The notes under the pieces: model-generated
Seen by the model: the letters and a program-made list of their open reading frames with translations, nothing else
Database searches by the model: none
Told to the model about the DNA's origin: nothing
Assembly: GCA_905178155.1 (NCBI GenBank)
Contig: CAJINV010000013.1
Coordinates: forward strand, 1,130,177-1,137,829
Reading direction: 5' to 3'
DNA length: 7,653 nt
Origin: Amoebophrya sp. A120
Taxonomy: Eukaryota; Protista; Dinoflagellata
Translations under genes and position numbers: made by a program
Shown: positions 883 to 7,653 of the stretch, piece by piece
Layout of the letters: every line of letters starts with the position of its first letter
Position numbering within the stretch: the first letter of the stretch is position 1

Positions 883-966
883 TCAGGACTTCAAAATCGT
901 TTCAAACAATTTCTGCACGTGTGGCAAGATCGTTTCCTGGTCACTTCGCAGCTTCACCTGCGCAGC
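883..966 (-). CDS. AP1B1/AP2B1: beta-adaptin exon 8 ([27 protein letters not shown])
   Basis: Strand plus terminal amphipathic helix, as expected at the end of the appendage platform subdomain. An alternative canonical acceptor would start the exon at 957. Confidence 0.75.
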   Translation of the reverse strand, partial: AAQVKLRSDQETILPHVQKLFETILKS

Positions 967-3900
967 AGAATATGCATTCGCAAAAGTATCGCCCGCATCT
1001 TGCCGTGCAGAATGCCAAACCACGGAAGTTGGGGAGAGATCGGGAACGGGATCGCGATCATCTGTCATCATCATTGAAGCCCAAGGGTCGCATGATGAAC
1101 ATCACTACTTTCCCACAAGCATACAAGCATACGAACTTGTCCTTCAGCTGAGTGCAGCTGTGCTACACTTGAAAAGTGCGATACTTTTGCACGGGGCCAT
1201 ACTGCTCCGCGAATGACGATCTGCACGAAAAAGGCCATCCGGTTTGCAAAACAGCCGCCAAGTTGGAAGGAGTGCGTAGCGTTTTGGTCGAGCCCTACCC
1301 GGGTTTTGTCCACGTGGTGCACGAAAATTAAGTTGCGCTCCCGAAATTTTCGCAACAGCGTGGGCAAAAAGTGCTTTTCCTTCGTATCCGGATTGATGGG
1401 CACCACCACGAATTCGGACGTCGTTGCGCTAGAAGAAGCGGCCTCCGCGCCTCCAGTTCCGCTGGGTTTATTGGAGCTCTTCGGTTCCAACTTGCCCCAG
1501 TTTAAGTCGAACTGCGCCTGGGGAAGCGGCACGTCAGGGATCAGGATGGAGTGCAGCTCGAAGGGGATTTTGAAATACCACAGGTCCAGGTTCGTTTTCA
1601 GGGCCGCTTCCAAAACGATCAGGTTGTTCAACGTGAGAATGGTATTCATCGCGGCGGCGGCGGAACTATTGCTGTCCGGTGTTCCCGCTGTTTTCGCGGC
1701 GATCACGATGGGGATGACAATTGTCTTGGACTCCTTCGGCCGTAGCTGCTCGATGTCCAGGAAGGGTTTCTGCAGGCCGAGCGCGAGCTGGAAAAAGTTT
1801 TTGTTCACCTGCAGTTGGAAGTTCTGCAAGGTTTGCTTCGTGTTGTTCTGCAACGCGAGGAAGAGCAGCAGGGATTTATTGTTCTGGCTGGAACCTCCCG
1901 GCGCGGTAGAACTGCTGGAAGAAGTACTTCGGGCCAAGGAGGTTGCGATCTTGAGCCCTGTTTGGCCGCCCTTCCCCGGCTTCGTGTCCGGCAGCACCAA
2001 GGCGTATTTGACGCTTTCCGCCTGGCTCTGGCTGGTGACCGGACGGCCTTGATTTGATGTTGATGAGAGGCCTGCGGTAGTAGTTGCTGTTCCTCGCTGT
2101 GGCGGTGAGAAGGAAGACGAGGACTTGGCGTCTTCGAGCGCGGCAAGTACAGGGGTCGGCTTGTTTTTAGTACCACCTTGCTCGTCCGACGAGTCTTCGT
2201 CTCCGGACCCGTCTTCATCACTGGAACCGTCTCCCGAAGAATCTTCGTCTCTGTCCGAGGAATTTTCGCCTTCATCCTCCTCAGACGATGAGGATTCGTC
2301 GTCGCTTCCGGTTCCGCTCGCGGCCCCGCTCGCCGCCGAGCTGCTGGAATTGGTCGGTCCGCCGTTTTTAGACGCGTTCTCAAACTCGACGTGGCCCACG
2401 TTCGAAGACCCTGACAGCGGTCCGCCTTTCGCGATCGCGAGCGCCGTGGTGGACGAAGCGGGTCCTTGAGCGCTGGCGGAAGTCGTGCCCGCAGCGCCGG
2501 TCGTTCCGTCTTGCGGTGGTTTTCGGCCGGCTGCGTTCGAAGCAGATGCTGCATTCGGTCCTTTCTGCTTGTAATTTTCATCGAAACCCATTTCCGCCTG
2601 CAGTTGCCGCAGTCGCGCAACCGCGTTTTCCTCGTCTTCGCTGTCCATGTCCTCGTCATAGGCCTCCTTGTTGCGCTCAGCTATAGATCGCAAAAGATAG
2701 TGAGAATGAATAGTGGCCAAGTACAAATCGGCACAGTGTTGTTGTTCACAAGGTGTGCTCATTGAGAACACTTTACCACGATGTTATCCTACGTTTCGCG
2801 AACCTACTTCTTGCTGCTTTGAGCTAGTACAATCACACGACAAGAACTACCAGTAGGGAAAATCATTTACAACTTTTGCGAACTGCATAAGCGCGTTTTT
2901 CCCGCCTTGGTCCGCTAAATTGGACAGAAATTGCTCCGGGAGTTGCCGGTACACCGAGGAGAGGGAGCCCCACGTCTGCAGAATTTTGTCGTTCGTACTG
3001 TTCGAAGTCAAGCTGTTCTTCTCGTCGATAAGTATCCCGGGGAAAGAAGCGAGCATAGCATGCTGTTTAGGGTAAGCGCTTGCCTACTTATTAATTTTTG
3101 CATTACCAACTAAATGCTATGCTAGCTTTTTTCGGCGGGATAATGATCACTGGCTGCTTGGACAGAAGAATCTGCTTCGCGACCTTCGGGTCCGCGGAAA
3201 GCAAACGCCAGTACATGTAACTGGCGTAGTGTTCACGGTTGTATTTGAGCTTGAACAATTACGAAGTCAGTACTTACTTATGTATGATGTCTGCTGGTGC
3301 AGAACGCATAGTTGATATTGGTTCACTGACAAGCACAACAAGAGTACTATACCCTCGATCCCGCAAATCCGGATCATCGGCCTCTTCCGTGCAAAGCTTG
3401 AACTATCACATGCAAAGACGTCTGAGTTGGAGTCCAAGTCCTCGACCTCGTCCCGTTCACACACAAGTGAAAACACATATCACAGTTACATATTTCATGC
3501 GGTTTCATCTGCCGGATCGATTGTTACCAGTATTTCAAACGTAACACCCGCTCGACCAGCACAGTCAGACTTGTTGTTACGTAATTTTTTTTTCGGTGTC
3601 ATCTACGACTTCATCTCAGACATCCCATTTTCCCTCCTTATCAAGCACTTGGTGACGATTGGCTGCGTCCGGTTTCCTGGGCTTTTCAGGAACATTTTCA
3701 CGATCGCCGTGAGCAGCACCGTCTTCACCACCCCCGGTTCCTCGCGGAAATGCTGGACCTCCTGCTGCAGATTCGGCCGAGAACTACTACTGCCCCCGGT
3801 GAGAAAGTGTAGCAGAATCTCGTCCGCGTTGTCGATCCGCTCGCTGTGCTCCCCGAGTACGAAGATCAGGTTGGCTCGCGCCTCCGGCTCGTCGATGGTC

Positions 3901-5768
3901 TCCAAATGGTCGCACAAGACCTGGATGCATTTCTCGAACTTGCCCGGATACTTGCGGAAAAGCAGCGTCATGGTGATGATGGCCTCCTGCAAAACGTAGT
4001 GGACCTGCGTGTCCATCAATTCCATCAGTAAATTTACGCAGTACTCCGCGCACACCTCACTTTGCAGCGCGATTCTCCCGATGGTCTTTATCGTTTTCCG
4101 GACGAAATCAATGTCGACCTCCGAGGCGTAGTCTTTCAATTCCGACAGAACCGAGTCCAGCATGTTCGTGTCGACAGATGGACCGAGTTGTCCGGGTGGT
4201 CCCGAGGCGGTTGCGGGAGGACCACCCGCGGAAGAAAAGATGAGCAAGGGAAGCAGGTCCAGCTTCTCCATCTTTACAAACGTCGGATCGTTGTACTTGC
4301 AGTACAAAAGCTTCACGTCCAGCGAAAACCTCGCATTGGTGCTGGTCGAAGACGAAAAAACGTTCGCGTACTTTTTCAAAAATAGCTGCAGGTTCCGCAA
4401 AACCACGAACTGTATCTCGGAGTCCGAGTTCAGCAGCGTGATCAACGGCGGGCGCAGCTTCTGCAGATAAACCTGCTTCGTCTCTTGATTCGTGATGCTG
4501 TCCATCAACTTCAGGAACAGTTTCATGGTCGCCATCACCACCGCTTCGTTTGCGTGCGAGAGCCGCGGCGCCACCCGGTCCAGCAGCATCTCCGCTTGGC
4601 GACTCGTCGCGGGGTTGTAGCTGTGTGCGAGCGAGTCCAGGATGAAAACCTGGCCCCACTCCGTGCACTCATTCAACGCGTGCAGCAAGTTTTGCGTCAG
4701 CGCTTGGTCGACGATTTGCAAGTACAAGGGATTCTTCTTGCTCATCTCCGACAGCGCCGCAACGCAATTCGCGACCACCGCCGGGTTACTGCTTGTATGG
4801 GACAGAAAAAAGCAGCTACAACGTCGAACTCTGTCTTGTATTTTTACGCTAAACCTGCAACCATTATCTTGTTTCTTGGGTTTTGCAACAAAAACAGGTC
4901 GACCTGTGCGTTGTGTTTTCTCTGTGCGATACTCCGTCGTGAGATCCTTCAAAATTTCCGCGAACCCGTGCTCTTCCACCAGTTCTGCCTGGATGTCGTA
5001 CCACTATCCTATGCGAAAACGTCCCTCCCCGCAGCTAGTTCAGATGTGCCGTTGGCTACACGAATTGCAAAGTATTGCAGGTTGCGCATGAGCAGCTTAG
5101 AAATGAATACTTACAAAGATGATCGCGATCAGTTTCAGTTCGCATCCTCATATTGACTCGAGCATAAGGAGGTAGTCTGGTGTACCAGCGGCAGCGAGCG
5201 ACGCGCATTACAAACGACTACTTACTTTGTGCAGCTGCAGAAATTGCCAATCTGCAAGGTGGACAGTGCCTCACCTTTCGGATGGGAACGTTTCCACAAA
5301 AAATAGCAGCTTCGCGATACACATCACCGCGGTTTTGCGCACGTACGGGTCCTGGTCCCGACAGGACCGGCGCAGGGGCTCCAGGATGTACTCCGTCACA
5401 GCGTCCAGGCGGATGCAGCCCATGGTGCGCACCGCGAGCGCCCGGATCAACGGGTTGGGGTCCAGAGAGTCCTTGCGAAAGGTGTTGACTGCCAGGATCG
5501 CGAGCTCCGGCTGCGTGGCGGAGTAGTTCACAACGTACAGGTAGACGAGCTTTTTCAAATCCAGGCTGTTGGTTTGCATACAGTTTATAACGTCCGGAAA
5601 CAGCGAAGACACGTCCTTGCCCACCGTCATGGCCGCGATCACCTTCCGCACCGCCTCGCGTTTCTTCTCCAGCTTCTGGCTGTGCAACTCGTCGCGGAGC
5701 TCCTGCAGCTCCGACCGCTTGTTGCTCGTCGAAGAGCTGCTGAAAAAACGACCGTCGGCGGAAACCAT
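883..5768 (-). CDS. AP1B1/AP2B1: AP-1/AP-2 complex subunit beta (beta1/beta2-adaptin), 8-exon gene, ~1166 aa
   Basis: Beta1/2-adaptin motifs in order: [107 protein letters not shown], then a hinge and an appendage ([23 protein letters not shown]). Proposed exons: 5768-5307, 5000-4933, 4791-3642, 3399-3353, 3220-3144, 3028-2891, 2677-1203, 966-883, total 3501 nt (a multiple of 3), ATG at 5768, TGA at 885-883. The family call is secure; exact junctions are inferred. Confidence 0.95.
967..1202 (-). other. intron 7, GT...CT (or GT-AG ending at 958), ~236 nt, terminal inverted repeat
   Basis: Perfect 13-bp inverted repeat GCAAAAGTATCGC (1190-1178 / 980-992). Ends GTAT... and ...ATAT TCT give in-frame GCA|GCT. 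Confidence 0.75.
1203..2677 (-). CDS. AP1B1/AP2B1: beta-adaptin exon 7 (acidic/Ser-Gly hinge plus appendage)
   Basis: Bulk of ORF 1071..2771: low-complexity hinge, then appendage-like sequence ([30 protein letters not shown]). Confidence 0.82.
2678..2890 (-). other. intron 6, non-canonical (TT...TG), ~213 nt, terminal inverted repeat
   Basis: An intron is required because of the in-frame TAG at 2849-2847. Perfect 9-bp inverted repeat TCGCAAAAG (2881-2873 / 2688-2696). Ends TTAT... and ...ATAG CTG give in-frame C|AG. The protein is not conserved here, so exact ends rest on the motif. Confidence 0.68.
2891..3028 (-). CDS. AP1B1/AP2B1: beta-adaptin exon 6 (DEKNSL...[15 protein letters not shown]...GKNA)
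   Basis: [14 protein letters not shown] corresponds to the end-of-trunk motif GSLASVYHKPPxxF. The 3' boundary is inferred from the intron rule. Confidence 0.8.
3029..3143 (-). mobile_element. intron 5, non-canonical (TT...TA), 115 nt, MITE/introner-like with 31-bp imperfect inverted repeat
   Basis: 3144-3114 vs 3031-3061 match at 26/31. Ends are TTAT... and ...ATAC TTA; A|TC gives QPVI-I-DEK. A 118-nt alternative using the flanking ATC repeat is also in frame. Confidence 0.78.
3144..3220 (-). CDS. AP1B1/AP2B1: beta-adaptin exon 5 ([25 protein letters not shown])
   Basis: Conserved YxYWRLLS..DP motif; absent from the ORF track. Confidence 0.88.
3221..3352 (-). other. intron 4, GT-AG, 132 nt, degenerate terminal inverted repeat
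   Basis: GG|T restores RDRG-YMYW. Ends are GTATAGT... and ...ACTACGC CAG, in the same +1/-4 register but with weak pairing. Confidence 0.9.
3353..3399 (-). CDS. AP1B1/AP2B1: beta-adaptin exon 4 ([16 protein letters not shown])
   Basis: 47-nt exon absent from the ORF track; encodes the conserved DxPDLRDRG motif. Confidence 0.9.
3400..3641 (-). other. intron 3, non-canonical (AT...TC), 242 nt, sub-terminal inverted repeat
   Basis: TTG|AAG gives VTKCL|KLCTEE, co-linear with homologues. Ends are ATAA... and ...ATAG TTC. 3626-3607 pairs with 3415-3434 (15 WC + 3 G:U of 20). Confidence 0.82.
3642..4791 (-). CDS. AP1B1/AP2B1: beta-adaptin exon 3 (trunk, SNPAVVAN...TQPIVTKCL)
   Basis: Main body of ORF 3603..4979, with continuous HEAT/ARM trunk similarity. 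Confidence 0.92.
4792..4932 (-). other. intron 2, GT-AG, 141 nt, stop-free and in frame, with terminal inverted repeat
   Basis: GA|C restores the conserved D of DSNP. Ends are GTAT... and ...ATAC AAG. 4932-4916 pairs with 4795-4811 (14 WC + 1 G:U of 17). Confidence 0.9.
4933..5000 (-). CDS. AP1B1/AP2B1: beta-adaptin exon 2 ([23 protein letters not shown])
   Basis: Matches the conserved LYDIxxxLVExxGFxxxLKDL segment. Confidence 0.9.
5001..5306 (-). other. intron 1, non-canonical (CT...GG), 306 nt, introner-like with terminal stem
   Basis: Removal joins AAG CTG|TAC GAC (KL|YD), the conserved reading. Ends are CTAT... and ...ATAG TGG. 5309-5285 pairs with 5001-5025 at 24/25 positions (7 G:U). 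Can slide 1 nt (GC...TG) giving the same mRNA. Confidence 0.88.
5307..5768 (-). CDS. AP1B1/AP2B1: beta-adaptin exon 1 (MVSADGRFF...VMCIAKL)
   Basis: Part of ORF 5271..5840. Similarity to beta-adaptin N-termini starts at the ATG at 5768 and ends after CIAKL. Confidence 0.92.
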
Positions 5769-5788: not shown

Positions 5789-5812
5789 CTAAGTAAGTAA
5801 GTACAATAAAAG
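5789..5812 (-). promoter_or_regulatory. candidate 3' splice / trans-splice acceptor upstream of the beta-adaptin ATG
   Basis: Minus strand reads TTTTATTGTACTTACTTACTTAG: a T-rich tract ending in AG (5790-5789), 20 nt before the ATG. Function is inferred only. Confidence 0.3.
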
Positions 5813-6417
5813 GCCTCACATGTAGACCGGTGAACGACACCGCACTAGCGGAGTACTGTCAAGAACCCAGACAAAGATTCTTCACTTGTAAGTTACACTA
5901 GGACCAAGCCCTTTGTAAAACACTACTTCACAGCACAGTGGCCAGTGCTGCGCTTTGCGGAAACGAATCCAGATCAAATTCGCGGCTGTACTTCTTGTTG
6001 TATCCGCTCTCTCTTCTTCTTCATTGTAGAAGCCGTTATTTTCAAGTAGTGATTGATGTGCTGCTGCTCCTTCTTTCGTGCCACTCTTTTGGCTCAAAGC
6101 CAGCCACCGCTCAGAGAGAACCAGAGTAGGGAAAAACTGAAGAAGACAATTGGCACGTCCTCTTAAACGCCAGAACGCAGAAAGAAGAACTCGTAGCGCG
6201 TCAGCGCTCTTTCCATGGGTAAGTACCCTTGTACTCACTTTTGTAGATACTCAACTTCTATGCCTGCGTGGATGTGTCGCTTATGTTTGTATGTTGATGT
6301 CGCTGAAACATGCGTACGCGTAGAAATGACTAGTAGTAGAGCAATGAATAATATGACTAAGATTTGTTTTTTCAATCTTCATCATGGTCGTTCCACCTTC
6401 CCACGCTGCCCCCAGCC

Positions 6418-7653
6418 TCATCTGCCTTTGCTCTTTTCTTGTTCATCTATCACATACTTTTCAAATCCGCTTTCAGCCTCGAAGCAGATTCCGAAGGACG
6501 GCAACTCGAGACGCGCCGCGTGCAAGAACATGCGCCACACGTGGCCGTCCCGAGGAGAGTGCAGGAGCTGCTGCTTGTTCGCTTGTTCTACTCCATTTTG
6601 CGTAGTCGAGAGCGGCCCCGGTCCTTCCGGTCCAGCCATCGTGCAGGAAGAGCTTCGCGAGCAGCTGCTGCTTCTCCCACCATTCCGATTTCCGCTTACC
6701 GCACTGTACGCTGCGTCACCCAGGATCGGATGGCCCAAGAAAGCCAAATGAACCCGGATCTGGTGTCGGCGGCCGGTGAAAAGGCGCACCCGAAGCAGCG
6801 TCACCTTCTTGGAACAATCCGAACCCGAAACAGTTCCCTCTGCTGCCACTAAAGGCCTACGGTAGTACCCCCTTCTCACGACCGAAAAGTGTGTGTGCGC
6901 GGACTCGGCCTTTGCTTGCGATTTTCTTGTTCCACCTGCAACTGTTTCAACATCAACCGGAGATGAATTCGAATTCAAACTTTTGTGCTGGCGCATCGCA
7001 TGCTCAGCCAGGCCATTGCTCTTCCCGTCCTCGTGCGGGGACATCGAGAACCGTGCCAAATCGAGCAGAGCGCCGGTGCCAGTTTTGACAAAATCGCCGT
7101 CTTGCACGAAGACCTCTCTTGTCGCGAACAGGGTCGATGATTTAGCTGGGGCGGCACCTACCGCTGGCCTTTCTTTTTCTTCGACAAGACCTCGTTCATC
7201 TTCTGTGGCCTTTTTTCCGTCATTTTCCTTATGACAAAGATCCACCGGCGAAGCAACTACACCCGGACTCTTTTCTCCAGATTGTATAGCGTCGGAGGCA
7301 CTAGAAATTTTTGCAGTCGCCAACCCGTCGGCCCCGGTGGTTCTTGTCAATTGTAATGATACGTCAGGAGGCGATATTGGAGCTTTATCCCGGATGGATA
7401 GGTGCACGTCGTACTCAGTTTCCTCCATCCACCCCTCCACGAGGACATCGTAAAACTTCCGCGCCTTTCGCTGCGTGAACTCGTCCCCGACCGCGGCTGC
7501 GGTTTGTTTTGTCAGGCCGACGAGCAGGATCCCGGAGGTTGCGTGGTCCAGTTGATTGATCCAACGAATCTTATTTGTCGGTTCTTGATGCCGCTCTTTC
7601 ACCCAGTCCGCCACAGTCTCCTCCCCGTCGTAATTCCTTTCGGGTCGAAAATC
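6418..7653 (-). CDS. RluA/RPUSD-family RNA pseudouridine synthase (5'-truncated by the window edge)
   Basis: Catalytic motif NQLDHATSGILLV (Asp codon 7548-7546), KFYDVLVEG, TGRRHQIRVHLAFLGHPILGDAAY, RMFLHAARLELP. The frame is open to 7653, so GTG at 7614 is not the start. TGA at 6420-6418. Confidence 0.93.
   Translation of the reverse strand, partial: DFRPERNYDGEETVADWVKERHQEPTNKIRWINQLDHATSGILLVGLTKQTAAAVGDEFTQRKARKFYDVLVEGWMEETEYDVHLSIRDKAPISPPDVSLQLTRTTGADGLATAKISSASDAIQSGEKSPGVVASPVDLCHKENDGKKATEDERGLVEEKERPAVGAAPAKSSTLFATREVFVQDGDFVKTGTGALLDLARFSMSPHEDGKSNGLAEHAMRQHKSLNSNSSPVDVETVAGGTRKSQAKAESAHTHFSVVRRGYYRRPLVAAEGTVSGSDCSKKVTLLRVRLFTGRRHQIRVHLAFLGHPILGDAAYSAVSGNRNGGRSSSCSRSSSCTMAGPEGPGPLSTTQNGVEQANKQQLLHSPRDGHVWRMFLHAARLELPSFGICFEAESGFEKYVIDEQEKSKGR

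Follow-up and report, generated by a model that had tools for sequence, protein, structure and literature searches.

Splice junctions that fit a constant one- and four-nucleotide distance from the complementary end motifs of seven introns in a beta-adaptin gene of Amoebophrya sp. A120

More than 60 % of the introns of Amoebophrya lack GT-AG ends, and how these are removed is a question that the genome paper itself states to be open (Farhat et al., 2021; PMC7789003). The locus described here raises that question within a single gene. In a stretch of 7653 nt of Amoebophrya sp. A120 DNA (contig CAJINV010000013.1, positions 1 130 177–1 137 829; hereafter the window), the minus strand carries a gene for an AP-1/2 complex beta-adaptin (883..5768) with eight coding exons, 1166 aa and a Pfam Adaptin_N domain. 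The large third exon is 100 % identical to P0001 (1166 aa, Amoebophrya sp. A120), and the eight exons, once spliced at the junctions of the RNA-like contigs (see below), translate into exactly that protein; thus the gene model was known and its seven introns were already annotated. At 1166 aa the product compares with ∼900 aa in most homologues, and its hinge (window 1202–2677, minus strand) is greatly expanded, with low-complexity runs of Ser, Asp, Glu and Gly. From the letters alone, a first, sequence-only reading had proposed that the introns are bounded not by GT/AG but by a short terminal helix, TAT at +2 to +4 facing ATA at −7 to −5.

The junctions were compared with assembled contigs, not reads, from X1, X2 and X3, which represent one sample and are RNA by guess, and from X5, which is DNA-like. 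In RNA-like contigs of each of X1, X2 and X3, all seven joints were present, and in every case the placement that had been proposed is among the equivalent ones. X5 provides a single contiguous contig (495–7526, 7032 bases) with no differences and no joint, so the segments skipped in the RNA-like contigs exist in the DNA; contigs from X7 were fragmentary and had no joints. Raw runs X8, X9 and X10 yielded 0, 1 and 0 reads, respectively, too few to bear on the junctions. The exons show no letter differences in X1–X3, and by the X1 record coordinates all exon bases are present and none has been added. No back-joints were seen in the X1–X3 or X5 contigs, a type of data that cannot show the absence of circles. 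In an alignment with nine homologues there was no gap at introns I1–I4, nor any amino acid gained or lost, which bears out the claim that protein conservation fixes these four independently. Continuity at I5–I7 was plausible in the same alignment, and there the junctions derived from the same rule are matched by X1–X3 joints at equivalent placements. A metagenome search with P0001 returned 80 loci, all of them distant (45–52 % identity in the best segment) and none near enough for intron comparison.

All seven introns lie on the minus strand. I1 (5306–5001, 306 nt, joint 5000/5307) has CT-GG ends within CTAT...ATAG-TGG, is slidable by 1 nt and is predicted to fold into a long end-to-end stem in register. 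I2 (4932–4792, 141 nt, joint 4791/4933; GTAT...ATAC-AAG) is a GT-AG hybrid with a stem and cannot slide. I3 (3641–3400, 242 nt, AT-TC; ATAA...ATAG-TTC) is slidable by 1 nt, its joint 3398/3641 being an equivalent placement; its ends are unpaired in the minimum-energy fold, and an inner stem is present. I4 (3352–3221, 132 nt, joint 3220/3353; GTAT...ACGC-CAG) has GT-AG ends and a weak stem, and could be an older canonical intron. I5 (3143–3029, 115 nt, TT-TA; TTAT...ATAC-TTA; joint 3027/3143, equivalent placement) is slidable by 2 nt and contains a 29-nt inverted repeat (86 %) starting from +2 and −5. I6 (2890–2678, 213 nt, TT-TG, joint 2677/2891; TTAT...ATAG-CTG) is not slidable and has a sub-terminal 9-bp stem. 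I7 (1202–967, 236 nt, GT-CT; GTAT...ATAT-TCT; joint 965/1202, equivalent placement) is slidable by 1 nt, has a terminal 5-bp plus a 13-bp stem, and starts with GT but leaves unused an in-frame AG 9 nt farther on. In total, two introns (I2 and I4) have GT-AG ends and five do not, whilst five junctions can slide by 1–2 nt and only I2 and I6 are fixed.

In bins overlapping the introns, X5 depth was 44–55 against 44 for single-copy sequence, so none of them belongs to a many-copy family at ≥ 95 % identity, which suggests eroded, single-copy elements. No similarity was found among the seven apart from a 14-nt near-palindromic word shared by I1 and I7 in opposite orientation. Elsewhere in the window, positions 1 to ∼523 are GC-rich (up to 79 %) and highly repeated (X5 depth 950–1580 versus 44), with loose ends at 522–526 that run on into many different sequences; this part appears to be one end of a dispersed element that lies downstream of the beta-adaptin gene. 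Upstream and co-oriented is a gene with a PseudoU_synth_2 (RluA-like) domain (6421–7653, minus strand) that has no intron in the part seen. Within its pseudouridine synthase reading frame, ∼7460–7653 is a repeated or paralogous segment (X5 bin depth 165 versus 44, shared loose end at 7461).

As sliding blurs the position of a junction, we described each intron by the number of bases before its TAT-type triplet (a) and after its ATA-type triplet (b), the sum of which is immune to sliding. This sum is 5 nt in all seven introns. The values allowed for a are {1,2} for I1 and I4, {1} for I2 and I6, {0,1} for I3 and I7, and {0,1,2} for I5, and the sole split common to all is a=1, i.e. 1 nt on the 5′ side and 4 nt on the 3′ side (p=0.0018 for all seven under a uniform null; p=0.012 for the five introns with exact TAT and ATA). 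At this split TAT stands at +2 in six introns and ATA at −7 in six, the counts first noted, and T+2, A+3 and A−7 are invariant. Opposing +2 to +4 to −5 to −7 gives 18 Watson–Crick pairs out of 21, against 0–10 at 11 other offsets; U+2 faces a purine at −5 in every intron, and the +1/−4 pair holds in five (three Watson–Crick, two wobble). The register is therefore well supported in the beta-adaptin gene, on a basis of seven introns from one gene, as represented by contigs of one RNA sample. The first reading overlooked that the flank of 1+4=5 nt equals the target-site duplication of some A120 introners.

Two further patterns were noted around the junctions. The end of the upstream exon pairs with intron −1 plus the start of the downstream exon beyond a 2-nt bulge (25 of 56 Watson–Crick across the seven introns; permutation p=0.009, ∼0.04 after 12 offsets), an effect driven by I3, I6 and I7 that is possibly a palindromic target preference or an exon–exon helix. 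A rule by which +1 and −1 always pair, or form G.G or A.C, fits all seven introns; it was set aside as post hoc and in conflict with TT-CC and TT-TC, both among the top motifs of strain A25.

The idea of a closing stem held up in part. Pairing in register is strong when the ends are simply opposed, and each intron's own ends form the best duplex in five of seven; however, a terminal stem closed in register is predicted by the minimum-energy fold for just I1, I2, I5 and I7, and not for I3, I4 and I6. As such, a cut measured from the helix is only partly supported, as it agrees with the fixed register but not with the folds of these three introns. The companion proposal, that a helix is read instead of GT/AG, is similarly mixed: in-frame GY-AG alternatives lie within 12 nt of I1, I5, I6 and I7 and the contigs use none of them, in keeping with a register beyond GT/AG, but two of the seven are GT-AG hybrids, T+2 and A+3 occur as in spliceosomal donors, and no compensatory change in TAT/ATA was found among the seven introns.

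The class of intron is known. The presence in Amoebophrya of non-canonical introns with inverted repeats (introner elements), named in the first reading, is borne out by Farhat et al. (2021; PMC7789003), where 65 % of A120 introns are reported as non-canonical, with inverted repeats that begin TAT, continue for ∼7 nt and end AAA (those of A25 begin TTA) and direct repeats of 3–5 nt at the boundaries. Table S4 of that paper has T+2 in 9/9 predominant A120 non-canonical motifs, and 9/9 predominant A25 motifs beginning TT. Inverted-repeat introns with GT-AG ends are reported there too, at ∼21 % for A120 by our own arithmetic on the published percentages, a figure open to aligner bias. In the present gene, an A-run starts at +11 to +15 in six introns and a T-run ends at −15 or −16 in six, I4 having neither. 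Direct repeats at the boundaries gave 14 of 35 matches under a 5-bp model (p=0.036 uncorrected), which, as the best of 18 geometries, is not significant once corrected. With A120 as host, skipping in RNA-like contigs and non-GT-AG ends in 5/7, the set agrees with the A120 non-canonical introns and departs from canonical U2 introns, there being GT/GC-AG ends in only 2/7 and YTRAY within 45 nt of the 3′ end in none. We found no paper that states a fixed register for A120, although Figs 3 and S19–S25 of Farhat et al. and Fig. S8 of Gozashti et al. (2025; PMC12130899) may show one. The 1/4 spacing thus appears to be unreported. The feature is real, its introns and intron class are already known, and only the spacing rule is new.

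These introns are likely to be old inserts of a TA...TA inverted-repeat transposon, i.e. introners, and we put at about even their excision by a relaxed spliceosome of the U2 type, with pairing of the intron ends as an aid. By this account, insertion would have made a 5-bp duplication (3 bp if the paired +1/−4 bases belong to the element), and cuts placed 1 nt outside the repeats on the 5′ side and 4 nt outside on the 3′ side would take out the element plus one duplication length and restore the target, independently of its sequence and of the orientation of the element. Since removing the element and 5 nt would restore any target, inserts would be removed cleanly. The spliceosome would read N-U-A, in which +1 is relaxed but U+2 and A+3 match GU-A donors; the hairpin would bring the intron ends together, replacing U1/U2AF bridging; and branching would occur at the invariant A−7, always equally far from the 3′ cut, for which no AG would be required. 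Fixed short branch-to-end distances are described for Yarrowia and Trichomonas (PMC2483917), with the branch A at −6 and −8 by our own count, so that by analogy A−7 would be within range. Fritillaria offers a comparable precedent of an adapted spliceosome that has abandoned GT-AG (bioRxiv 2025.08.15.670264), and the near-complete spliceosome (83 of 89 proteins found, no U1 snRNA found; PMC7789003) also counts in favour. So does the share of GT-AG ends, 2/7 here (p=0.005 at 1/64) and ∼21 % of A120 inverted-repeat introns as against the rare hybrids of Euglena (PMC12501133), an enrichment that may be aligner bias. Spliceosomal chemistry almost universally uses G+1 and a terminal AG. Against relaxed spliceosomal excision are the missing terminal AG in the non-GT-AG introns, the pairing predicted for A−7 inside the helix in four of seven, and the lack of YTRAY from the 3′-terminal 45 nt of all seven, one CTGAC lying at −50 in I4. 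Perfect GTAAGT donors inside I1 and I4 also count against it, as three in the sense orientation (5220–5225, 5109–5114 and 3272–3277, minus strand) are unused in the contigs. GTAAGT is over-represented in the window as a whole (7 versus 2.0 expected, 7 being reached in 1 of 200 shuffles), always outside coding sequence, and occurs on the plus strand at 5793–5802, 5888–5893 and 6219–6224.

A separate, non-spliceosomal nuclease/ligase that measures its cuts from the U+2:R−5 end of the helix, as proposed for Euglena, is an explanation that we regard as possible but doubtful. It would account for the purine opposite U+2 in every intron, for the 18/21 pairs in register, for the preference of each intron for its own ends and for the neglect of in-frame GY-AG sites. 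It further gains from A25, where at least two families, fam12 and fam3, show the 1/4 placement with a 5-bp target-site duplication despite TTA repeats (28 of 60 rows covered; PMC12130899, PMC7789003), and from the Euglena precedent of a fixed register with circular excised introns (PMC12501133). It is weakened by the open ends of I3, I4 and the non-slidable I6 in the minimum-energy folds, by the absence of compensatory changes and by the frequency of GT-AG hybrids. The bulge-helix-bulge recognized in tRNA and archaeal splicing, the TSEN substrate, has two 3-nt bulges flanking a central helix of 4 bp. That geometry was rejected here, with 7 of 28 positions pairing, and no part of the window matched an Rfam group I/II catalytic core at the gathering threshold. 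On balance we slightly favour the spliceosomal reading over a Euglena-like nuclease/ligase.

It is improbable that no genome-wide register exists, with only the 5-nt total being fixed by duplication and frame selection, the cuts falling at 1/4, 4/1 or symmetrically, and this gene being a lucky one. The published tables give that view some ground, as do the splice sites called 'variable' relative to the hairpin in the Fig. 3 legend of Farhat et al. (PMC7789003). By our own count over the rows for all 58 A120 families in Gozashti et al. (2025; PMC12130899), in 24 the splice sites depart from symmetry about the element by exactly 3 nt, 12 towards the 3′ and 12 towards the 5′ side, so that the annotation contains the mirror placement as often as the 1/4 register; three are symmetric and 31 have other offsets. 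In the three families whose copies were fully counted, T+2 stands at 7956 of 11 578 annotated copies (69 %), with +1 variable, and A−2 at 7837 of 11 578 (68 %). However, none of the seven introns allows the mirror 4/1 (p=0.008 under 50:50) or 1/1. Moreover, copies that are young and retain intact duplications can slide, and GT/AG and CT/AC, the top motifs, look like aligner preferences; the mirror placement may thus arise from sliding combined with such a preference. The Euglena code, too, emerged only once slidable introns were excluded (PMC12501133). In the same A120 rows, fam160, fam56 and fam74 have exact 1/4 offsets with a 5-bp target-site duplication, and fam38 is annotated as '5-bp TSD, TA/TA termini'. 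The tables fit a 50:50 mixture of the 1/4 register and its mirror, and in the rows covered they are compatible with the register rather than proof of it or of our explanation of the mirror. We consider it very probable that the register is real and general in A120.

Finally, an artefact, whether through use of neighbouring GT/GC-AG sites by canonical splicing, editing of the intron ends in RNA or excision at the DNA level, is highly unlikely and largely refuted: it could draw on the GY-AG alternatives near four of the five non-canonical introns and on the RNA nature of X1–X3 being a guess, but the contigs fix the junctions, the exons have neither differing nor extra letters, X5 is contiguous, group I/II matches are absent, and possible editing is reported at only 2–4 % of intron ends (Farhat et al., 2021; PMC7789003).

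A fixed 1/4 register would turn what has seemed to be no signature into a testable code that predicts exactly where cuts fall, offers A−7 as a candidate for the branch nucleotide and accounts for the harmlessness of inserts, and it would correct the placement of slidable introns in existing annotations. A bolder reading, which we think rather unlikely, is that A120, and perhaps A25, has a second nuclear splicing code, spliceosome-independent and convergent with but independent of that of Euglena, which cuts 1/4 around any TA...TA hairpin. Each TA...TA insertion, wherever in an exon and whichever way round, would then become a perfectly removed intron, and the result would be a universal introner of which the genome tolerates tens of thousands of copies. 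With the 1/4 register, the splicing code of Euglena would also have a counterpart among alveolates.

Amongst known systems, the closest are the introners of A120 itself (PMC7789003, PMC12130899), which share with these introns (115–306 nt) the organism, the variable dinucleotides, a proportion of GT-AG hybrids and the TAT...AAA inverted repeat. By contrast, the seven seem to be eroded singletons, with X5 depth near single copy. A 2024 review repeats the variable-boundary view of Amoebophrya introns and suggests an adapted spliceosome (PMC11282704). Introners of the Micromonas and Aureococcus type are, as here, inverted-repeat transposons with target-site duplications that turned into introns (PMC11282704), and Fritillaria relies on an adapted spliceosome to remove its non-GT/AG introns (bioRxiv 2025.08.15.670264). 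In both groups the dinucleotides are defined, whether carried or co-opted (GT/GC plus a target AG; AG-AC/AT), unlike the present introns, in which the terminal dinucleotides are not fixed apart from T+2. Hemistasiid diplonemids also have non-canonical introns with paired ends, of unknown mechanism (PMC12621601). The nonconventional introns of Euglena (PMC12501133), an unrelated lineage, differ in motif (CAG/CTG versus TAT/ATA), in register (+i pairs with −(i+2) leaving 3/5 free bases, versus −(i+3) leaving 1/4), in having a purine at exon +1 (here 3/7, with no such rule) and in the rarity of GT-AG hybrids, which are common here; in a column comparison, the euglenid signature N3CDG...CH′GN5-6/R does not describe the seven introns. 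Even so, the likeness drawn in the first reading is borne out by that paper: the Euglena introns follow no GT-AG rule, their register is genetically defined, with ends paired in a fixed asymmetric register, and they have a probable MITE origin, with slidable direct repeats that hide the rule, as they do here.
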